From Escherichia coli (GTDB taxonomy: Bacteria; Pseudomonadota; Gammaproteobacteria; Enterobacterales; Enterobacteriaceae), in assembly GCF_029227855.1 (NCBI RefSeq), contig NZ_CP074356.1: a DNA stretch of 64,000 nucleotides; one strand, given 5' to 3'. The notes below the pieces were generated by a model. That model ran no database searches, had not been told where the DNA came from, and worked only from the letters and a program-made list of their open reading frames with translations. Position numbers and translations under genes: made by a program. Positions 3,985 through 62,125 of this stretch are shown piece after piece; position 1 is the first letter of the stretch, and every line of letters begins with the position of its first letter.

Positions 3985-5517
3985 ATGACGCAGAAAATTG
4001 AACAATCTCAACGACAAGAACGGGTAGCGGCCTGGAATCGTCGCGCTGAATGCGATCTTGCCGCTTTCCAGAACTCGCCAAAGCAAACCTACCAGGCTGA
4101 AAAAGCGCGCGATCGCAAACTGTGCGCCAACCTGGAAGAAGCGATTCGTCGCTCGGGTTTACAGGACGGTATGACGGTTTCCTTCCATCACGCTTTCCGT
4201 GGCGGTGACCTGACCGTCAATATGGTGATGGACGTCATCGCGAAGATGGGCTTTAAAAACCTGACTCTGGCCTCCAGCTCCCTGAGTGATTGCCATGCGC
4301 CGCTGGTAGAACACATTCGCCAGGGCGTGGTTACCCGCATTTATACCTCTGGCCTGCGCGGTCCACTGGCGGAAGAAATCTCCCGTGGTCTGCTGGCGGA
4401 ACCGGTGCAAATCCACTCTCACGGCGGACGTGTGCATCTGGTACAGAGCGGCGAACTGAATATTGATGTGGCTTTCCTCGGCGTCCCGTCCTGTGATGAA
4501 TTCGGTAATGCCAACGGCTACACCGGTAAAGCCTGCTGCGGCTCCCTCGGCTATGCAATGGTTGATGCCGACAACGCGAAACAGGTTGTGATGCTCACTG
4601 AAGAACTGCTGCCTTATCCGCATAATCCGGCAAGCATTGAGCAAGATCAGGTTGATCTGATCGTCAAAGTTGATCGCGTTGGCGATGCCGCGAAAATCGG
4701 CGCTGGCGCGACCCGTATGACCACTAACCCGCGCGAACTGCTTATTGCCCGTAGCGCTGCGGATGTGATTGTCAACTCAGGCTACTTTAAAGAAGGTTTC
4801 TCCATGCAGACCGGCACCGGCGGCGCATCGCTGGCGGTAACCCGTTTCCTGGAAGACAAAATGCGTAGCCGCGATATTCGCGCCGACTTCGCCCTTGGCG
4901 GTATTACCGCAACGATGGTTGATCTGCACGAAAAAGGGCTGATCCGCAAACTGCTGGATGTACAGAGCTTTGACAGCCACGCTGCACAATCGCTGGCCCG
5001 TAACCCCAATCACATCGAAATCAGCGCCAACCAGTACGCTAACTGGGGTTCAAAAGGCGCATCGGTTGATCGTCTCGACGTGGTGGTACTGAGCGCGCTG
5101 GAAATTGACACCCAGTTCAACGTTAACGTGCTGACCGGCTCTGACGGCGTACTGCGTGGTGCTTCCGGTGGTCACTGCGATACCGCGATTGCCTCTGCGC
5201 TTTCCATCATCGTCGCGCCGCTGGTACGCGGTCGTATTCCGACTCTGGTGGATAACGTGCTGACCTGCATCACCCCGGGCTCCAGTGTCGATATTCTGGT
5301 CACTGACCACGGTATCGCAGTTAACCCGGCACGTCCGGAGCTGGCAGAACGTCTGCAGGAAGCGGGCATTAAAGTGGTTTCCATTGAGTGGCTGCGTGAA
5401 CGTGCGCGTCTGCTGACCGGTGAACCACAGCCGATTGAATTCACCGACCGCGTCGTTGCCGTTGTGCGTTACCGCGATGGCTCGGTGATCGATGTTGTGC
5501 ATCAGGTGAAGGAATAA
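3985..5517 (+). CDS. citF: Citrate lyase alpha subunit (citrate CoA-transferase) CitF, 510 aa
   Basis: ORF 3889..5517; start taken at ATG 3985 (MTQKIEQSQRQERVAAWNRR...), 10 nt after citE stop. Confidence 0.92.
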   Translation: MTQKIEQSQRQERVAAWNRRAECDLAAFQNSPKQTYQAEKARDRKLCANLEEAIRRSGLQDGMTVSFHHAFRGGDLTVNMVMDVIAKMGFKNLTLASSSLSDCHAPLVEHIRQGVVTRIYTSGLRGPLAEEISRGLLAEPVQIHSHGGRVHLVQSGELNIDVAFLGVPSCDEFGNANGYTGKACCGSLGYAMVDADNAKQVVMLTEELLPYPHNPASIEQDQVDLIVKVDRVGDAAKIGAGATRMTTNPRELLIARSAADVIVNSGYFKEGFSMQTGTGGASLAVTRFLEDKMRSRDIRADFALGGITATMVDLHEKGLIRKLLDVQSFDSHAAQSLARNPNHIEISANQYANWGSKGASVDRLDVVVLSALEIDTQFNVNVLTGSDGVLRGASGGHCDTAIASALSIIVAPLVRGRIPTLVDNVLTCITPGSSVDILVTDHGIAVNPARPELAERLQEAGIKVVSIEWLRERARLLTGEPQPIEFTDRVVAVVRYRDGSVIDVVHQVKE

Positions 5518-10299: not shown

Positions 10300-10710
10300 A
10301 TGTCCAGACCAACTATCATCATTAACGACCTGGATGCCGAACGCATCGATATTCTGCTGGAGCAACCCGCCTATGCTGGTTTGCCAATCGCCGACGCGTT
10401 AAACGCAGAGTTGGATCGCGCCCAAATGTGTTCGCCAGAAGAGATGCCACACGACGTGGTGACAATGAACAGCCGGGTTAAATTCCGCAATCTTAGCGAT
10501 GGCGAAGTGCGTGTGCGCACGCTGGTGTATCCGGCAAAAATGACCGACAGCAATACTCAGCTTTCCGTTATGGCTCCGGTAGGTGCCGCACTGCTGGGGC
10601 TGCGCGTTGGCGATTCCATTCACTGGGAACTTCCGGGCGGCGTTGCAACCCACCTTGAAGTGCTGGAACTCGAATACCAGCCAGAAGCTGCTGGCGACTA
10701 CCTGCTTTAA
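10300..10710 (+). CDS. rnk: Regulator of nucleoside diphosphate kinase Rnk (GreA/GreB-like), 136 aa
   Basis: ORF 10213..10710; start taken at ATG 10300 ([28 protein letters not shown]...). Confidence 0.9.
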
Positions 10711-14285: not shown

Positions 14286-15032
14286 ATGTTAAAAAAGATA
14301 CTTTTACTGGCTCTGCTTCCTGCAATCGCCTTCGCAGAGGAACTTCCTGATCCAGTAAAAGCGATTGAAAAACAGGGTATTACGATCATCAAAACATTCG
14401 ATGCTCCCGGAGGAATGAAAGGTTATCTCGGAAAGTATCAGGATATGGGCGTCACCATCTACCTGACTCCAGATGGTAAGCACGCTATCTCCGGTTACAT
14501 GTACAACGAGAAAGGTGAAAACCTGAGTAACACACTTATCGAAAAAGAAATTTACGCACCAGCCGGACGCGAAATGTGGCAACGGATGGAACAATCCCAC
14601 TGGCTCCTCGACGGTAAAAAAGATGCGCCGGTCATTGTCTACGTCTTCGCCGATCCTTTCTGCCCATATTGTAAACAGTTCTGGCAGCAGGCTCGTCCGT
14701 GGGTAGATTCTGGCAAAGTGCAATTAAGAACATTGTTGGTTGGCGTTATCAAGCCAGAAAGCCCGGCGACAGCAGCGGCAATTCTTGCCGCCAAAGATCC
14801 CGCAAAAACCTGGCAAGAATATGAAGCCTCTGGTGGCAAGCTTAAGCTAAACGTGCCTGCAAACGTAAGTACAGAGCAAATGAAAGTGTTAAGCGATAAC
14901 GAGAAACTGATGGACGATCTGGGGGCAAATGTCACGCCAGCTATCTATTACATGAGTAAGGAAAATACACTGCAACAGGCCGTGGGGTTGCCCGATCAGA
15001 AAACGCTTAATATCATTATGGGGAATAAATAA
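14286..15032 (+). CDS. dsbG: Periplasmic thiol:disulfide interchange protein DsbG, 248 aa
   Basis: ORF 14226..15032; start taken at ATG 14286 ([30 protein letters not shown]...); CPYC active-site motif present. Confidence 0.9.
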
Positions 15033-15240
15033 AAGATAATTCATGGATGGTTGAACTATATCCCTGCTTTTCAACCATCCTAAAAAAGCATGAATTGCTC
15101 GCTCTGCCCTAAGTGGCTGTGCTATTTTAGTAAAACTTAATCCTGAGTTAAGCAAAAAAACATAATCAATAAAAATATATACGCAAAAAACATTGATTAA
15201 GTGAATATACCATGGAAGAAAAATATAACCGGAGTAGTGT

Positions 15241-16143
15241 ATGGCCAATCTCTACGACTTGAAAAAGTTCGACTTAAATCTTCTTGTCATATTTGAGTGT
15301 ATTTATCAGCATTTAAGCATTAGCAAGGCTGCTGAATCACTATATATCACCCCGTCAGCCGTGAGCCAGTCGTTACAACGCTTACGTGCGCAATTTAATG
15401 ACCCTTTATTCATTCGCTCAGGAAAAGGTATCGCGCCGACGACGACAGGGTTAAATCTGCATCACCATCTTGAGAAAAACCTCAGAGGCCTTGAACAAAC
15501 AATTAATATAGTCAATAAGTCCGAACTAAAGAAAAACTTTATTATCTACGGCCCTCAGCTCATTTCTTGCTCTAATAATAGTATGCTGATCCGCTGCCTA
15601 CGGCAAGATGCCTCTGTCGAGATTGAGTGCCATGATATCCTCATGTCAGCAGAGAATGCTGAAGAACTGTTGGTTCACCGCAAAGCCGATCTGGTGATCA
15701 CCCAAATGCCAGTGATCAGCCGTTCCGTCATTTGCATGCCATTGCATACAATTCGCAATACTCTAATTTGTAGTAATAAGCATCCGCGAATTACTGACAA
15801 TAGCACTTATGAACAAATTATGACAGAAGAGTTCACCCAATTAATATCCAAATCAGCAGGAGTTGATGATATTCAAATGGAAATAGACGAGAAGTTTATG
15901 AATCGCAAAATTTCATTTCGTGGTTCCTCTTTGCTGACAATCATTAATAGCATTGCAGTTACAGATTTACTGGGAATAGTCCCCTATGAACTTTATAACT
16001 CCCACCGTGACTTTCTTAATTTAAAAGAGATAAAACTAGAACATCCGTTACCTTCAATAAAGCTTTACATTTCCTATAATAAATCTTCTTTAAATAATTT
16101 GGTGTTCTCCCGATTTATTGATCGTCTAAATGAGAGTTTTTGA
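15241..16143 (+). CDS. ybdO: LysR-family transcriptional regulator YbdO, 300 aa
   Basis: ORF track 15241..16143; N-terminal helix-turn-helix (LSISKAAESLYITPSAVSQSLQRLR); synteny between dsbG and ybdN. Confidence 0.88.
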   Translation: MANLYDLKKFDLNLLVIFECIYQHLSISKAAESLYITPSAVSQSLQRLRAQFNDPLFIRSGKGIAPTTTGLNLHHHLEKNLRGLEQTINIVNKSELKKNFIIYGPQLISCSNNSMLIRCLRQDASVEIECHDILMSAENAEELLVHRKADLVITQMPVISRSVICMPLHTIRNTLICSNKHPRITDNSTYEQIMTEEFTQLISKSAGVDDIQMEIDEKFMNRKISFRGSSLLTIINSIAVTDLLGIVPYELYNSHRDFLNLKEIKLEHPLPSIKLYISYNKSSLNNLVFSRFIDRLNESF

Positions 16144-16289
16144 TATATAACCTCAGACAGCTATTATAACTTTCACCTATTTATTCACAGCACGAATGAA
16201 AAATAAAACACTCTGCTTTTCAGTGTTTACTTTATAATTAACAGTCTTATCTCACTGATCACCCCGTAACGTTCAGAGAGCGTTTTCAG

Positions 16290-17510
16290 ATGTCTATTTA
16301 TAAAATCCCGCTTCCACTGAATATTCTGGAAGCTGCAAAAGAACGTATTACCTGGACACTTAACACCCTACCCCGTGTCTGCGTTTCTTTTTCGGGTGGT
16401 AAAGATTCCGGATTAATGCTGCATCTGACCGCCGAACTTGCCCGACAAATGGGCAAAAAAATTTGTGTTTTATTTATCGACTGGGAAGCTCAGTTCTCTT
16501 GCACCATTAACTATGTTCAGTCCCTGCGCGAGTTGTACACCGATGTCATCGAAGAGTTTTACTGGGTTGCGCTCCCGCTTACAACGCAAAATTCCCTATC
16601 ACAATACCAACCCGAATGGCAGTGCTGGGAACCTGATGTCGAATGGGTACGTCAGCCCCCGCAAGATGCGATAACCGATCCTGACTTTTTCTCCTTTTAC
16701 CAGCCTGGCATGACCTTCGAACAATTTGTGCGTGAGTTTGCCGAATGGTTTTCGCAAAAACGTCCGGCGGCGATGATGATCGGCATCCGTGCGGATGAGT
16801 CCTACAACCGTTTTGTCGCCATCGCCAGTTTAAATAAACAACGTTTTGCCGATGATAAGCCCTGGACTACTGCCGCACCAGGCGGTCATAGCTGGTACAT
16901 ATACCCCATCTACGACTGGAAAGTCGCTGATATCTGGACCTGGTATGCTAGCCATCAACGCCTCTGTAACCCACTGTATAATATAATGTATCAGGCAGGC
17001 GTTCCTCTACGTCATATGCGAATTTGCGAACCTTTTGGTCCGGAACAACGGCAAGGATTATGGCTCTATCACGTTATCGAACCGGATCGCTGGGCTGCTA
17101 TGTGCGCACGAGTCAGCGGGGTAAAAAGTGGCGGCATTTACGCCGGACATGACAACCATTTTTATGGTCATCGGAAAATCCTCAAGCCCGAACATTTAGA
17201 CTGGCAGGAGTATGCATTATTGCTACTCAACAGCATGCCGGAGAAAACAGCTGAGCATTATCGCAATAAAATCGCCATTTATTTGCACTGGTATCAGAAA
17301 AAAGGCATCGAGGTTCCACAAACCCAGCAAGGGGACATTGGCGCGAAAGATATCCCCTCCTGGCGGCGAATATGCAAAGTTTTACTCAATAACGATTACT
17401 GGTGTCGGGCATTATCATTTAGCCCGACCAAAGCGAAGAACTATCAGCGTTATAACGAACGAATAAAAGGAAAACGTCAGGAATGGGGGATACTATGCAA
17501 CAACGATTAA
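16290..17510 (+). CDS. ybdN: PAPS-reductase-like (adenine-nucleotide alpha-hydrolase) protein YbdN, 406 aa
   Basis: ORF track 16290..17510; SFSGGKDS P-loop-like motif near the N-terminus; synteny. Confidence 0.88.
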   Translation: MSIYKIPLPLNILEAAKERITWTLNTLPRVCVSFSGGKDSGLMLHLTAELARQMGKKICVLFIDWEAQFSCTINYVQSLRELYTDVIEEFYWVALPLTTQNSLSQYQPEWQCWEPDVEWVRQPPQDAITDPDFFSFYQPGMTFEQFVREFAEWFSQKRPAAMMIGIRADESYNRFVAIASLNKQRFADDKPWTTAAPGGHSWYIYPIYDWKVADIWTWYASHQRLCNPLYNIMYQAGVPLRHMRICEPFGPEQRQGLWLYHVIEPDRWAAMCARVSGVKSGGIYAGHDNHFYGHRKILKPEHLDWQEYALLLLNSMPEKTAEHYRNKIAIYLHWYQKKGIEVPQTQQGDIGAKDIPSWRRICKVLLNNDYWCRALSFSPTKAKNYQRYNERIKGKRQEWGILCNND

Positions 17511-43145: not shown

Positions 43146-43266
43146 TTGACAACATCTGGTACGATTCGCCCGCAGCCATTACTGACCGCGGGCGAAAGTG
43201 TAAAGCAGGTGCCTTACCATCCTGACCTGACAACCGGATATGCGGGGATTGCTCCCCGCACAACGG

Positions 43267-43419
43267 CTACTTCTTCGGTTCGTAAGCGAGAACAGCCTTA
43301 AACTCAATATTACGTTCCTTCACCGTAAACTCACACAGCGAGTCGCGGACCAGAAGCGTAAATCCCAGCACCGTTAAACACAGCACTATGACTGCCACAA
43401 GGGCATATTTCGTCAGCAT
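43267..43419 (-). CDS. hokE: Hok-family membrane toxin, copy A, 50 aa (Arg at position 25)
   Basis: ORF 43267..43455; Hok start at ATG 43419 with GGAGG Shine-Dalgarno: [50 protein letters not shown]. Confidence 0.8.
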
Positions 43420-43519
43420 GTTTATATTGCCTCCATGCGAAGAAGGGACTACCATCCGAGTTGTTCAGGTTTGGGTAGGTAGCCCCAGGGTTGATAGAAA
43501 TATCGTCCTGGGGCTTCAT
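43331..43519 (-). CDS. mok-like overlapping reading frame of hok copy A, 62 aa
   Basis: ORF track 43331..43519 ([20 protein letters not shown]...), starts upstream of hok and overlaps it out of frame, the arrangement known for mok in hok/sok loci. Confidence 0.4.
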
Positions 43520-43670
43520 CTTTCCAGACCTCAGAGTTAACCTGAAACCGGAAAGCTTCAGGCACCCGCCGTTATCTTACCCTTCCTCAGCAAAATAGCT
43601 GTTTATTTATACAGTGAATCCTGTTTCGGACTTCTGTTGGCAAAACTGATCATTGCCCTTAAAACGACAT

Positions 43671-44139
43671 CGCCCGCAGCCATTGCTGACCGCGGGCGAA
43701 AGTGTAAAGCAGGTGCCTTACCACCCTGACCTGACAACCGGATATGCGGGGATTACTCCCCGCACAACGGCTACTTCTTCGGTTCGTAAGCGAGAACAGC
43801 CTTAAACTCAATATTACGTTCCTTCACCGTAAACTCACACAGCGAGTCTCCGACCAGAAGCGTAAATCCCAGTACCGTCAAACACAGCACTATGACTGCC
43901 ACAAGGGCATATTTCGTCAGCATGTTTATATTGCCTCCATGCGAAGAAGGGACTACCATCCAAATTGTCTGGTTTGGAGTGGCAGCCCCAGGGTTGATAG
44001 AAATATCTCCTGGGGCTTCATCTTTCCAGACCTCAGAGTAAACCTGAAACCGGAAAGCTTCAGGCACCCGCCGTTATCTTACCCTTCCTCAGCAAAATGG
44101 CTGTTTATTTATACAGTGAGTCCTGTTTCGGACTTCTCA
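43671..44139 (-). other. hok/sok-type type I toxin-antitoxin locus, copy B (hokE-like), boundaries approximate
   Basis: Tandem direct repeat of copy A with a 504-bp period; same stem-loops; differs by several substitutions and small indels in the mok/leader region. Confidence 0.8.
43771..43923 (-). CDS. hokE: Hok-family membrane toxin, copy B, 50 aa (Gly at position 25)
   Basis: ORF 43771..44067; Hok start at ATG 43923 with GGAGG Shine-Dalgarno: [50 protein letters not shown]. In this copy the upstream frame is fused in-frame to hok. Confidence 0.8.
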
Positions 44140-56876: not shown

Positions 56877-57560
56877 ATGAAACTGTTGATTGTCGAAGAT
56901 GAAAAGAAAACCGGAGAATACTTGACCAAAGGGTTAACCGAAGCCGGTTTTGTGGTCGATTTGGCCGACAACGGGCTGAATGGCTACCATCTGGCGATGA
57001 CCGGAGATTATGATCTGATAATCCTCGATATTATGCTGCCGGACGTGAACGGCTGGGATATCGTGCGCATGTTGCGTTCCGCCAATAAAGGGATGCCGAT
57101 TCTGTTGCTTACCGCGCTTGGTACCATTGAACATCGCGTCAAGGGGCTGGAGTTGGGGGCGGATGACTATCTGGTGAAGCCGTTCGCTTTTGCTGAACTG
57201 CTGGCGCGGGTGCGCACTCTACTGCGGCGCGGGGCGGCGGTAATTATCGAAAGTCAGTTTCAGGTTGCCGATCTGATGGTCGATCTCGTCAGCCGCAAAG
57301 TCACCCGCAGCGGCACGCGCATCACTCTGACCAGTAAAGAATTTACTCTGCTGGAGTTTTTCCTCCGCCATCAAGGCGAAGTGCTGCCCCGCTCGCTTAT
57401 CGCCTCGCAGGTGTGGGACATGAATTTCGACAGCGATACCAACGCCATTGATGTGGCAGTGAAGCGGCTGCGCGGCAAAATCGACAACGACTTTGAGCCG
57501 AAGCTGATTCAAACCGTGCGCGGCGTGGGTTACATGCTTGAGGTGCCGGATGGTCAGTAA
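56877..57560 (+). CDS. cusR: Copper-responsive response regulator CusR (OmpR family), 227 aa
   Basis: ORF track 56877..57560, [41 protein letters not shown]... Confidence 0.95.
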
Positions 57561-58998
57561 GCCATTTCAGCGCCCGTTTTCGCTGGCAACCCGCCTGACC
57601 TTTTTTATCAGCCTGGCCACCATCGCGGCGTTTTTCGCCTTTGCCTGGATCATGATTCACTCGGTAAAAGTGCATTTTGCTGAGCAGGATATTAATGATT
57701 TAAAAGAGATTAGCGCCACACTCAAGCGCGTTCTTAATCATCCCGAAGAGACACAAGCCCGACGCTTAATGACGCTGGAAGATATCGTCAGTGGTTATTC
57801 CAATGTGTTGATTTCCCTGGCAGATAGCCAGGGTAAAACGGTGTATCACTCCCCCGGTGCGCCGGATATCCGCGAGTTTACGCGTGACGCCATACCCGAT
57901 AAAGACACGCGGGGCGGCGAGGTGTATCTCCTTTCCGGCCCGACGATTATGATGCCGGGCCACGGTCACGGGCATATGGAACACAGCAACTGGCGGATGA
58001 TTAACTTGCCGGTTGGCCCGTTGGTGGACGGCAAACCGATTTATACGCTCTACATCGCGCTTTCGATCGATTTTCATCTTCATTACATAAATGATTTGAT
58101 GAATAAACTTATTATGACCGCATCGATCATCAGCATCCTGATCGTCTTTATCGTGCTGTTGGCGGTACATAAAGGTCACGCACCGATCCGCAGCGTCAGC
58201 CGTCAAATCCAGAACATTACCTCGAAAGATCTCGACGTTCGCCTTGACCCGCAGACCGTGCCGATTGAGCTGGAACAGCTGGTACTGTCGTTCAACCATA
58301 TGATCGAGCGTATTGAGGATGTCTTTACTCGCCAGTCCAATTTCTCAGCGGATATCGCTCACGAAATTCGTACACCAATTACGAATCTCATCACGCAAAC
58401 GGAAATCGCCCTCAGCCAGTCGCGCAGCCAGAAGGAGCTGGAAGATGTGCTCTACTCTAATCTCGAAGAGCTGACGCGAATGGCGAAAATGGTCAGCGAT
58501 ATGCTGTTTCTCGCCCAGGCCGATAACAACCAGTTAATCCCCGAAAAGAAAATGCTCAACCTGGCGGATGAAGTCGGCAAAGTGTTCGATTTTTTCGAGG
58601 CATTAGCGGAAGATCGCGGCGTGGAGTTGCGGTTTGTTGGTGACGAGTGTCAGGTTGCGGGCGATCCGCTGATGCTGCGTCGGGCGTTAAGCAACCTGCT
58701 TTCGAACGCCCTGCGTTATACGCCGCCCGGAGAGGCAATTGTTGTGCGCTGCCAGACGGTCGATCACCAGGTGCAAGTTACCGTCGAAAACCCCGGTACG
58801 CCCATTGCGCCCGAGCACTTACCGCGATTGTTTGACCGTTTCTATCGCGTTGACCCTTCCCGCCAGCGAAAAGGTGAAGGTAGCGGTATTGGGCTGGCGA
58901 TAGTGAAATCGATTGTTGTCGCGCATAAAGGCACGGTTGCGGTAACGTCAGATGCGCGGGGGACAAGGTTTGTGATTATGCTGCCGGAGAGAGAGTGA
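57550..58998 (+). CDS. cusS: Copper/silver sensor histidine kinase CusS, 482 aa
   Basis: ORF 57538..58998; start taken at ATG 57550 ([29 protein letters not shown]...), overlapping the cusR stop; H-box [10 protein letters not shown]. Confidence 0.93.
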
Positions 58999-59734
58999 TT
59001 ATTAAGTTCAAATTCAGGGCGTGGTGCATCACCTCCTGGTATTGTTGATCAACAAATTAGAGAAAAACTTATTAAACATATGAAATATCGAAGGCTTTTA
59101 TTTTTCAAAGTTTCACGAGATGTTTGTATATGAAACTTAGTTAAATCTGTGTTTCTTCCAATTGTAGATCACAATGCCCTTTCTAAATTTTCATCGTTAT
59201 AAACAAGCCATCTATCATATAAAGCAATGAATAATTTAATCGCGATTAATCATCATTAATTGTTATATTATTCACTCAATCTATTTATCAAGTGAATTTG
59301 ATAAATTCCTAATTTAAAATATCCACTATTGAGCCAGTATTTAACAACGTTAAGATGTGCAATGTGCAGATCATGTTATCAGGGTGGAGCGGTAGCATAT
59401 ATTTCTTATGCAATCATTCATTTTAATAATGTTAATTGGATTATTTATTGCTGTGAATAAAAATATATTATGAATATTGGTTTAACTTTGCGTTTTTGTT
59501 ACTCGTTGTGATATGCGTACCTGTCCTGAATAACGCCAAGAAACAAGAGGTTGAGCTTGTGATTATTTTTTTGACTGAACAGACACCCGTTTCTGTAAAG
59601 TAATATTTAAACAAAATTCTCACATAACCATAGCATTTTCTGTTCCTTCCCTAATAACGTCTGAAGTCGTCCCGCTTATCACATTATCCGCAGTTGTACG
59701 GTACGGATCATTATTCATTTTACTGGAGGTTGCT

Positions 59735-61636
59735 ATGTCAACCGGATTACGTTTCACACTGGAAGTGGACGGCCTGCCGCCGGATGCTTTTGCGGTGGTT
59801 TCCTTTCATCTGAACCAGTCACTCTCTTCGCTCTTTTCCCTCGATCTCTCCCTGGTCAGCCAGCAGTTTCTCTCCCTTGAATTTGCGCAGGTGCTGGACA
59901 AAATGGCCTACCTGACGATATGGCAGGGCGATGAAGTACAGCGCCGGGTGAAAGGCGTGGTGACCTGGTTTGAACTCGGGGAGAACGACAAAAACCAGAT
60001 GCTGTACAGCATGAAGGTGCACCCGCCGCTGTGGCGTGCCGGTCTGCGCCAGAACTTCCGTATCTTCCAGAACGAGGACATCAAAAGCATCCTCGGCACG
60101 ATGTTGCAGGAAAACGGGGTGACCGAATGGAGTCCGCTGTTCAGCGAGCCGCATCCTTCCCGTGAGTTTTGTGTCCAGTACGGTGAGACTGATTACGATT
60201 TCCTGTGCCGGATGGCGGCGGAGGAAGGCATCTTCTTTTATGAGGAGCATGCTTACAAAAGTACCGACCAGAGCCTGGTGCTGTGCGACACAGTCCGCCA
60301 TCTGCCCGAATCTTTTGAAATCCCATGGAACCCGAACACCCGTACCGAGGTGAGCACCCTCTGCATCAGCCAGTTCCGCTACAGCGCACAAATCCGCCCT
60401 TCTTCCGTGGTGACCAAAGACTACACCTTTAAACGCCCCGGCTGGGCCGGACGTTTTGAACAGGAAGGCCAGCACCAGGACTACCAGCGCACGCAGTATG
60501 AAGTGTATGACTACCCCGGACGTTTCAAGGGTGCCCACGGGCAGAACTTTGCCCGCTGGCAGATGGACGGCTGGCGAAACAATGCAGAAACCGCGCGGGG
60601 AATGAGTCGCTCGCCGGAGATATGGCCGGGACGACGAATTGTGCTGACGGGGCATCCGCAGGCGAACCTGAACCGGGAATGGCAGGTGGTGGCAAGTGAA
60701 CTGCACGGCGAACAGCCACAGGCGGTGCCAGGACGGCAGGGAGCGGGGACGGCGCTGGAGAACCATTTTGCGGTGATCCCGGCAGACAGAACATGGCGAC
60801 CACAGCCGTTGCTGAAACCGCTGGTCGACGGCCCGCAGAGCGCTGTCGTGACAGGACCGGCAGGCGAGGAAATCTTCTGCGACGAACATGGTCGCGTGCG
60901 GGTGAAGTTCAACTGGGACCGCTATAACCCGTCAAACCAGGACAGTTCGTGCTGGATCCGTGTGGCACAGGCGTGGGCAGGCACCGGTTTTGGCCACCTG
61001 GCGATACCGCGTGTGGGTCAGGAGGTGATTGTAGACTTCCTCAACGGCGATCCGGACCAGCCGATCATTATGGGGCGCACCTACCACCAGGAAAACCGCA
61101 CCCCCGGCAGCCTGCCGGGAACAAAGACGCAGATGACCATCCGCTCCAAAACGTACATGGGCAGCGGATTTAATGAGCTGAAGTTTGATGATGCGACAGG
61201 GAGAGAACAGGTCTACATCCACGCGCAGAAGAACATGGATACCGAAGTGCTCAACGACCGTACCACCACCGTAAAACACGATCACCACGAAACCGTAAAA
61301 AATGACCAGACGGTCACGATCCAGGAAGGTAACCGCCTTCTTACGGTGGAAAAAGGCCACAAGATCACCGGAGTACTGAAAGGGTCTTTATCTGAGGATG
61401 TCTTTCAGGACAGAGGCACGATTGCCGGTTCGGTGCATGTTGACGCTGTAAACAATGGTGGCGAAGGCGACGGTATACAGGCTTATACGGCGATTAAGGA
61501 AATTTTGCTGGCCGTGGAGGAAAGCAAAATTGCGCTGACGCCGGATGGCATTCAGCTACAGGTCGGGGAATCGACGGTAATCAGGCTGTCGAAGGATGGC
61601 ATCACCATCGTGGGCGGTTCTGTTTTCATCAACTGA
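59735..61636 (+). CDS. vgrG: Type VI secretion spike protein VgrG (gp27/gp5-like), 633 aa, no C-terminal effector extension
   Basis: ORF track 59735..61636 with GGAGG Shine-Dalgarno; MSTGLRFTLEVDGLPPDAFAVVSFHLNQSLSSLFSLDLSLVS... N-terminus is the VgrG signature; followed by a DUF1795 gene and a PAAR-Rhs gene. Confidence 0.85.
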   Translation: MSTGLRFTLEVDGLPPDAFAVVSFHLNQSLSSLFSLDLSLVSQQFLSLEFAQVLDKMAYLTIWQGDEVQRRVKGVVTWFELGENDKNQMLYSMKVHPPLWRAGLRQNFRIFQNEDIKSILGTMLQENGVTEWSPLFSEPHPSREFCVQYGETDYDFLCRMAAEEGIFFYEEHAYKSTDQSLVLCDTVRHLPESFEIPWNPNTRTEVSTLCISQFRYSAQIRPSSVVTKDYTFKRPGWAGRFEQEGQHQDYQRTQYEVYDYPGRFKGAHGQNFARWQMDGWRNNAETARGMSRSPEIWPGRRIVLTGHPQANLNREWQVVASELHGEQPQAVPGRQGAGTALENHFAVIPADRTWRPQPLLKPLVDGPQSAVVTGPAGEEIFCDEHGRVRVKFNWDRYNPSNQDSSCWIRVAQAWAGTGFGHLAIPRVGQEVIVDFLNGDPDQPIIMGRTYHQENRTPGSLPGTKTQMTIRSKTYMGSGFNELKFDDATGREQVYIHAQKNMDTEVLNDRTTTVKHDHHETVKNDQTVTIQEGNRLLTVEKGHKITGVLKGSLSEDVFQDRGTIAGSVHVDAVNNGGEGDGIQAYTAIKEILLAVEESKIALTPDGIQLQVGESTVIRLSKDGITIVGGSVFIN

Positions 61637-61663: not shown

Positions 61664-62125
61664 ATGCAGTTCACTTTTAATGAAGGCCACATTCAACTGC
61701 CGTCTCAATGGCAGGATCAGTCAATGCAGGTCCTGGTGTCCACAGATAACAGTGGCATCAACCTGGTCATTACCCGCGAAGCCGTTCCACAGGGAACCCT
61801 GACACCAGAGCTGTACCAGGAAACGCTGGCGCTGTACCAGGGCAAACTTGATGGGTACACCGAACATGCCTGCCGGGAAATCACTCTGGCAGAGGCCCCG
61901 GCCTGGCTGCTGGATTATTCCTGGAACGGTCCGGAAGATGAGGGGAATCAGGGGCGGATTAGCCAGATAGCCGTATTCCAGCGGCGTGGAGATACGCTGC
62001 TGACCTTCACTTTCAGCACCTCCTTATCCCTGAAGAACAGTCAAAAGACGATGCTGCTGGAGGTGATAAAGAGCTTCACCCCGTTGCCACCGGAGAATGA
62101 CATCCAAAAGGACCAGCCGCGCTGA
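61664..62125 (+). CDS. DUF1795 / Eag-family (EagR-like) chaperone for a prePAAR Rhs effector, 153 aa
   Basis: ORF track 61664..62125, MQFTFNEGHIQLPSQWQDQSMQVLVSTDNSGINLVITREAV...; size, N-terminal pattern and position between vgrG and a prePAAR-Rhs gene fit Eag chaperones. Confidence 0.7.
   Translation: MQFTFNEGHIQLPSQWQDQSMQVLVSTDNSGINLVITREAVPQGTLTPELYQETLALYQGKLDGYTEHACREITLAEAPAWLLDYSWNGPEDEGNQGRISQIAVFQRRGDTLLTFTFSTSLSLKNSQKTMLLEVIKSFTPLPPENDIQKDQPR

Follow-up and report, generated by a model that had tools for sequence, protein, structure and literature searches.

The 736-bp spacer between cusS and vgrG is probably the left arm of an auxiliary T6SS effector island at the cusS/nfrB Rhs hotspot. 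This arm is AT-rich and non-coding, and it would carry a control region coated by H-NS. The spacer lies near the end of the window, by which we mean the whole 64-kb stretch of E. coli DNA analysed here. The cusS stop codon TGA occupies 58996-58998 and the vgrG ATG begins at 59735, leaving positions 58999-59734 between the two genes. The features of the locus, with the evidence on which each was placed, are as follows.

57550-58998, plus strand: cusS (Cu/Ag sensor kinase), 482-aa form ending ...VIMLPERE before the stop codon (RefSeq annotation of identical genomes; ORF)
58974-58986: left edge of the island as defined by comparison with empty sites of the K-12 type (blastn, 3'-end alignment of cusS in 10 genomes, megablast coverage classes)
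58999 to ~59253: segment A, AT-rich (about 29-31% GC), non-coding, at the cusS locus only (genome counts, Pfam and protein searches, substitution phase)
~59254 to 59734, plus strand: segment B, vgrG leader or left arm common to the Rhs element of the yncH (rhsE) hotspot (80-81% identity to paralogs)
59298-59307, plus strand: TTGATAAATT, a 9/10 match to the high-affinity H-NS motif TCGATAAATT (motif scan)
59346-59401: 56-bp conserved core, AACGTTAAGATGTGCAATGTGCAGATCATGTTATCAGGGTGGAGCGGTAGCATATA (genome counts, cassette comparison)
59376-59403, plus strand: candidate sigma-70 promoter, TTATCA-16 nt-TATATT (consensus scan)
59725-59737, plus strand: Shine-Dalgarno sequence GGAGG (59725-59729) and vgrG start codon (59735-59737), invariant in all variants (sequence)
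59735-61636, plus strand: vgrG (T6SS spike/tip protein), 633 aa (ORF, RefSeq annotation)
61664-62125, plus strand: gene for a DcrB-related/DUF1795 EagR-type chaperone (ORF, annotation; PMC7216683)
62145-64000, plus strand: 5' part of rhs (PAAR/RHS-repeat toxin), continuing beyond the window (annotation of collinear genomes)

Base composition and coding content

A first-pass annotation had described an abrupt AT-rich step between cusS and vgrG, and this description held. The GC content of the spacer was 31.5%, compared with 52.5% for the window and a mean of 52.4% (sd 5.1%) across all 736-bp frames of the window. The lowest-GC frame of this length (31.4%) began at 58987, and the frames as low as the spacer, which amounted to 0.025% of the total, each overlapped it. 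The spacer is therefore the compositional minimum of the 64 kb and clearly below its local average. Both of its edges were sharp: in 300-bp windows, GC content fell from 56% (58700-58999) to 28% (59000-59299) and returned to 57% by 59750-60049. The vgrG and rhs genes then overshot the step, reaching 60-63% (57-63% for the vgrG/rhs core). At 68.5% AT over 736 bp, the spacer contains 12 runs of at least 8 nt made up of A and T only, and the long A/T tracts seen at first reading are present (e.g., 59456-59471 and 59310-59322). In length and composition (more than 65% AT over several hundred bp, and runs of A and T within it), it resembles the DNA that marks H-NS-silenced regions.

Elsewhere in the window, 736-bp frames with 35-39% GC were found at ~14800-16700, which aligns with the dsbG-ybdO-ybdN region of strain YF-1, and at ~820-2100, which sits upstream of the citD end of the YF-1 comparison. 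The copy number of hokE/IS421 near entD (window ~43166-43760 vs. L010 2181-5851) differs from YF-1, with duplicated pieces in the blast alignment.

The spacer encodes no protein and no detectable structured RNA. Its longest ORFs span 51 aa on the minus strand and 43 aa on the plus strand, and translations of all six frames returned zero Pfam matches at E ≤ 1, in agreement with the initial impression that it holds no convincing ORF. Searching 58500-60200 against Rfam (E ≤ 1) yielded just two chance-level matches, to Listeria rliB and snoU13, neither with E < 0.3.

In identical or collinear genomes, RefSeq annotation gives the order cusCFBA/cusRS, spacer, vgrG, DcrB-related (DUF1795/EagR) gene, and rhs. 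Beyond rhs, the collinear genomes carry an immunity gene and an orphan piece of rhs that includes a zincin toxin domain. Small ORFs and the insertion sequence ISAs1 (ISEc1, 'H-rpt') come next, ahead of nfrB, nfrA, ybcH, envY, and argU. The locus has the components of a T6SS auxiliary vgrG-eag-rhs module, namely vgrG, a DUF1795/EagR chaperone gene, and a PAAR/RHS-repeat toxin with its immunity gene, an assignment that comes from the RefSeq annotation of loci 98-100% identical to this one.

Occupied and empty cusS-nfrB sites

The 3' flank of cusS is a hotspot for different T6SS-related cargo. The locus between nfrB and cusS corresponds to 'Rhs locus 4' of Jackson et al. 2009 (PMC2935791), to the vgrG1 or vgrG-2 orphan island Z0700-Z0707 of EHEC EDL933 (PMC7216683, PMC12981562), and to S-loop 44 of Sakai (PMC7618764). 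In strain YF-1, the island runs vgrG-eag-rhs-immunity-orphan rhs tips-ISAs1 and is 13.3 kb long. We found the spacer at 99-100% identity in 2295 complete E. coli genomes; strains with this allele include YF-1 and ARL09/232, and BL21(DE3) has a spacer 99% identical to it. A cassette-free arrangement, in which 149 bp separate cusS from nfrB, occurs in K-12-type genomes, other E. coli, the GTDB representative E. coli, and E. whittamii, the last two identified through a CusS-anchored scan of species genomes. No part of the spacer was present in genomes with this arrangement (K-12 type, other E. coli, E. whittamii), and the comparison gave no sign of ancestral DNA kept without the cassette.

When the K-12 site was compared with YF-1 using blastn, the alignment extended to window position 58973 and resumed 13,270 bp further on, upstream of nfrB. 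Aligning the cusS 3' ends of 10 genomes revealed that the last codons are homologous yet heavily substituted. Mismatches with K-12-type cusS turn dense at 58974 and homology is gone after the Pro codon (~58985), with the K-12 gene ending GTT ATC ACA TTA CCC GCT TAA and that of the window ending GTG ATT ATG CTG CCG GAG AGA GAG TGA. Since homology with empty sites ends in the last 25 nt of cusS, the left junction must be placed there, within the last 4-8 codons, and the spacer is therefore wholly island DNA that includes no neutral junction. The first-pass annotation had taken the spacer for the boundary of an acquired island. Its reading as island DNA linked to the cassette stands, but the spacer is not itself the junction, which falls in 58974-58986. 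Because the left edge of the island lies inside the last cusS codons, CusS C-termini differ between occupied and empty genomes: the protein has 482 aa and ends ...VIMLPERE or ...MIKLPEKG with an island, and has 480 aa and ends ...VITLPA at empty sites. Citrobacter CusS ends ...ILILPKHGN.

At the right end, we rejected the ISAs1 terminus as the island junction, as the inverted repeats of ISEc1 (CAGGGAAAGATCACG / CAGGGCAAGATTACG) end the element 116 bp short of the resumed K-12 homology. Neither a direct repeat flanking the island nor a copy of the K-12 junction sequence at its right end was found. The site is not at a tRNA gene; argU lies about 7 kb further on. Other hallmarks of a genomic island are present, including presence/absence polymorphism between conserved flanks (149 bp when empty vs. 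13,270 bp in YF-1), deviant base composition (31.5% GC in the spacer and up to 63% in vgrG/rhs, against 52.5% in the window), and an insertion sequence at one end (ISAs1/ISEc1, or H-rpt, near the distal end in collinear genomes, beyond the window).

Stumps of the spacer persist without the cassette in strains OkiPb01679, which retains the first 386 bp followed by IS1 and then ybcH, and PCP06173, where 42 bp remain ahead of IS903B and a truncated nfrA. These stumps are the product of secondary IS-mediated deletion and are no sign that the spacer predates the cassette. In some strains (L006 8387-9137, L009 9192-10192), IS1 and IS903B events removed the whole cassette together with nfrB and part or all of nfrA. 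In strain D5 (NZ_CP010145.1), IS1 lies within the spacer.

Outside this arrangement, Citrobacter cusS is directly followed by a tRNA-like sequence and fim-type regulators, with no nfrBA, vgrG, or similarity to the spacer. A CusS-anchored scan of 100,044 species genomes returned three Escherichia loci, Citrobacter, and more distant genera. As neither segment was present in any of these loci, the scan gave no trace of the leader beyond E. coli. A third occupant of the cusS 3' site (L013 5150-10150) consists of an HNH/EndoVII toxin, two WD40-repeat proteins, a PAAR-like protein, and ISAs1, without vgrG. The cusS-proximal sequence of this HNH/WD40/PAAR island is common to the cryptic-clade strain Escherichia sp. 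MOD1-EC7003 (L016 7450-8606).

Segments A and B and the 56-bp core

Comparison with other loci indicates that the spacer is a composite of a locus-specific segment A and a portable leader, segment B. Of 5426 complete E. coli genomes, 2801 (52%) carried segment A, each with a single copy that adjoined cusS and none with a copy elsewhere. In O157:H7, 17 bp stand in place of 59025-59182. Substitutions between alleles of segment A had no phase bias (24/22/30 by codon position), and a search of 5.8 billion proteins with its reconstructed peptide matched one entry only, an E. coli 'hypothetical protein' annotated at this very locus. We regard segment A as non-coding DNA.

At the yncH-pptA hotspot, the sequence directly preceding rhsE is 80-81% identical to segment B. 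This paralog abuts a 5'-truncated rhsE in K-12, and in strain 1916D6 it runs to a start (ATGTCAACCGGATTACG...) in which the vgrG start codon is fused to rhs. Given these neighbors, segment B is the left arm, or leader, of a family of vgrG-rhs elements that has been duplicated between two hotspots. The last 16 nt of K-12-type cusS (TTATCACATTACCCGC; L007 ~10329-10346, minus strand) match leader positions 59676-59691 (TTATCACATTATCCGC) at 15 of 16 nt. With a rough post hoc chance of ~0.006, this match may be a coincidence or a trace of old recombination.

Segment B contains a 56-bp core (59346-59401), whose 55-nt consensus occurred in 5290 of the 5426 complete E. coli genomes (97.5%) in 1-3 copies; the cusS-locus island holds a second copy. 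At the ansP/yncGH hotspot, the core was 100% conserved between cassette types whose flanks were about 60-70% identical, and unrelated cassettes begin directly after it (core at L012 6001-6055, L087 ~5001-5037, L088 5001-5038, and L089 5001-5055). It is followed by truncated rhsE in K-12, by an rhs tip and immunity gene and then vgr-eag-rhs in Z1323 and Ec-U14-2, and by an ISAs1 left-end remnant and then PAAR-vgrG-M35 peptidase in UPEC132, while in ST131 ISEc1 is joined at the core's CAGGG. The core includes a GATC. Folding it against shuffles gave no RNA structure, and searching a plasmid collection for it returned chromosome-like E. coli records only. A small ORF in the core (MAMCRSCYQGGAVAY...) was rejected, being frameshifted in the window and lacking its start in UPEC132. 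We tentatively raise the possibility, doubtful as it is, that the core is a dedicated cis-element of T6SS auxiliary effector cassettes, acting either as a common operator/promoter or as a fixed left exchange anchor.

Candidate control elements, alternative readings, and known systems

The left arm would carry the promoter and operator region of the cassette, with the best candidate located in or next to the 56-bp core. A consensus scan found 3 promoter-like sites in the spacer vs. 3.1 expected from shuffles, and thus no enrichment. Of these, only TTATCA-16-TATATT (59376-59403) is on the vgrG strand. This candidate is conserved in the window, O157, S1-IND, and rhsE-type leaders; its -10 straddles the 3' edge of the core and is altered in other cassette types (TATACA, TTTACA, TATTTA). 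A start near 59410 would give a leader (5' UTR) of ~325 nt. In K-12, SELEX with sigma-70 holoenzyme identified a site in the yncH-rhsE interval, directed toward rhsE and flagged 'HNS', for which the hexamers TTGACT-17-TATTAC were proposed (Shimada et al., PMC3946193). In the window, the corresponding -35 is TTAACT and the stretch separating the two hexamers has lost 11 bp, which abolishes the promoter. The K-12 promoter call is therefore not transferable to this allele. A PhoB ChIP site has also been reported upstream of rhsE, in an H-NS-bound region (Fitzgerald et al., PMC10294691 Table 1). The K-12 PhoB motif (reverse complement CATGACATTTTTCTGATA) falls within the leader aligned to segment B, and the leader alignment showed that this box is not conserved in the window.

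H-NS would cover the arm, as reported for the K-12 paralog, leaving vgrG-eag-rhs transcriptionally silent under laboratory conditions. Such silencing, which the first-pass annotation had thought probable, is a reasonable reading with indirect published support and is well motivated by paralogy and composition, from which we infer it. Across the whole window, we counted 9 matches to the H-NS motif vs. 4.2 expected, a count of at least 9 being reached in 4 of 100 shuffles, which we do not take as enrichment above chance. The spacer match at 59298-59307 (9/10 to tCGATAAATT) is nearly invariant in paralogs, although as a single site it is unremarkable relative to shuffles. No Fur or CRP box in the spacer scored above shuffles. 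Scanning and folding the sequence after cusS identified no conserved terminator, so transcription could read through from cusRS. In the full-length operon of EHEC, the upstream start was reported to be inactive (PMC7618764). When the vgrG1 promoter was replaced in EHEC, neither VgrG1 nor RhsF protein was obtained, and a further, post-transcriptional layer of control was suggested by the authors (PMC13141884). Transcriptional silencing may therefore not be the whole story.

We considered whether the leader could instead be a structured regulatory RNA, either a long 5' UTR switch or a small RNA, with control over the translation of vgrG. Such an RNA would account for the lack of VgrG1 protein after a promoter swap alone in EHEC, and it accords with the post-transcriptional repression of vgrG1 proposed in PMC13141884, the ~325-nt UTR expected from a start near 59410, and an invariant small hairpin (GGUUG...CAACC) across the start codon. 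However, the leader has no Rfam match and folds no better than shuffles (z = +1.4; overall z-scores -0.85 to +1.44, and -0.3 to +1.4 for the core), and RNAalifold recorded a compensatory change in 0 of 80 pairs across four variants, which makes a leader RNA very unlikely. Nor does it seem at all probable that the spacer, especially segment A, represents one or more decayed genes, such as an old AT-rich toxin tip or immunity gene. Although a short minus-strand stretch (DENL..AL.STIGRNT) is kept between two alleles, with stops at different places, and a plus-strand frame of 35 codons (59496-59603) is open in three variants, no frame has a Pfam match and the sole match among the 5.8 billion proteins was the one called on this same locus. 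There is no excess of third-position changes, whether in segment A or in the 35-codon frame (6/8/9, counted by hand from the leader alignment). These frames are not preceded by a Shine-Dalgarno sequence, and indels shift them between alleles. Lacking both third-position bias and a Shine-Dalgarno sequence, the 35-codon frame was also rejected as a small ORF.

A further rival reading concerns the age of the occupied site, on which the two spacer alleles bear. Relative to strain S1-IND-02-A (window 58974-59734 vs. L005 7976-8743), identity was 68% in the last 25 nt of cusS, 69.5% in segment A, and 79% in segment B, as compared with 96% in cusS, 99.5% in vgrG, and 99.6% in eag. The switch to near-identity is sharp and falls exactly at the vgrG start codon. 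The S1-IND (minority) leader is closer to the rhsE-type leader than the window leader is. This pattern fits recombinational homogenisation of the GC-rich vgrG/rhs core, with the AT-rich arm keeping old divergence. Such a deep split also leaves room for ancient occupation, in which the occupied cusS-nfrB haplotype would be long-resident or ancestral and the K-12-type empty site would be a derived deletion that clipped the end of cusS. Besides the low identity of the spacer alleles relative to cusS and vgrG, ancient occupation would account for the presence of the 482-aa CusS ending LPERE in three downstream contexts (the vgrG island, the HNH/WD40/PAAR island of L013, and L016 of MOD1-EC7003), and the LPERE ending is nearer in length to that of Citrobacter CusS (LPKHGN) than K-12 LPA is. 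Against this, the empty arrangement is common to E. whittamii and several E. coli lineages, with NfrB 98% identical, and the tRNA-like sequence and fim regulators after Citrobacter cusS come without a trace of A or B. Moreover, a second Rhs hotspot harbours a paralog of segment B, and the composition of the spacer is atypical of backbone. We consider ancient occupation unlikely, the polymorphism being more probably an insertion than an ancient deletion.

AT-rich, non-coding arms of Rhs/vgrG islands at recognised hotspots are a kind of feature that is already known. The island, the hotspot, the GC-rich/AT-rich composite make-up of Rhs elements, and the silencing of such DNA by H-NS were all established previously. 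Only mildly novel are the precise position of the junction within cusS, the division of the spacer into A and B, the sharply bounded split into two deep alleles, and the 56-bp core. These results carry little weight as a discovery, and their practical value is a sharper map of the locus. Should the core prove to be a cis-element that a regulator or recombinase recognises, it would provide a handle on switching on or swapping silent Rhs toxin cassettes in E. coli. The core is the obvious first target for activating the silent vgrG1-rhsF cassette, where promoter replacement in EHEC failed.

Among known systems, the vgrG1/vgrG-2 island of EHEC O157:H7 (Z0700-Z0707 / ECs0603-0607) occupies the same site between cusS and nfrB and has the same order as here, vgrG-eagR-rhsF-immunity-rhsG-ISAs1. 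Its leader is 94% identical over 59183-59734 and was reported to be silent from the upstream start (PMC7216683, PMC7618764, PMC12981562). The two islands differ in their Rhs toxin tips, and the exchange of 59025-59182 for 17 bp gives O157 a spacer of 593 bp rather than 736 bp. The yncH-rhsE intergenic region of K-12, the left arm of the RhsE element (locus 6 of Jackson et al.), is 81% identical to 59282-59678. Like the spacer, it is AT-rich and immediately upstream of an Rhs/vgrG unit, and it was reported to be bound by H-NS and, in vitro, by sigma-70 holoenzyme (PMC10294691, PMC3946193). It differs in its chromosomal locus and in the deletion of vgrG, eag, and the 5' part of rhsE in K-12, and neither the K-12 promoter call nor the PhoB box has a counterpart in the window.

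The locus also conforms to the composite structure described for Rhs elements (Hill and co-workers; Jackson et al. 2009, PMC2935791), with which it shares a GC-rich core, AT-rich non-core flanks, a distal ISAs1/H-rpt, displaced orphan tips, and location at fixed hotspots of the chromosome. That literature centres on AT-rich 3' core extensions, and the 5' arm, its A/B make-up, and the 56-bp core are undescribed there. Finally, xenogeneic silencing by H-NS of T6SS loci, such as the main cluster of EHEC and SPI-6 of Salmonella, likewise involves AT-rich DNA upstream of a horizontally variable T6SS module, one that stays off in cells cultured in the laboratory. Paralogy and composition are what link the spacer to these loci, and they suggest that it may be silenced in the same manner.
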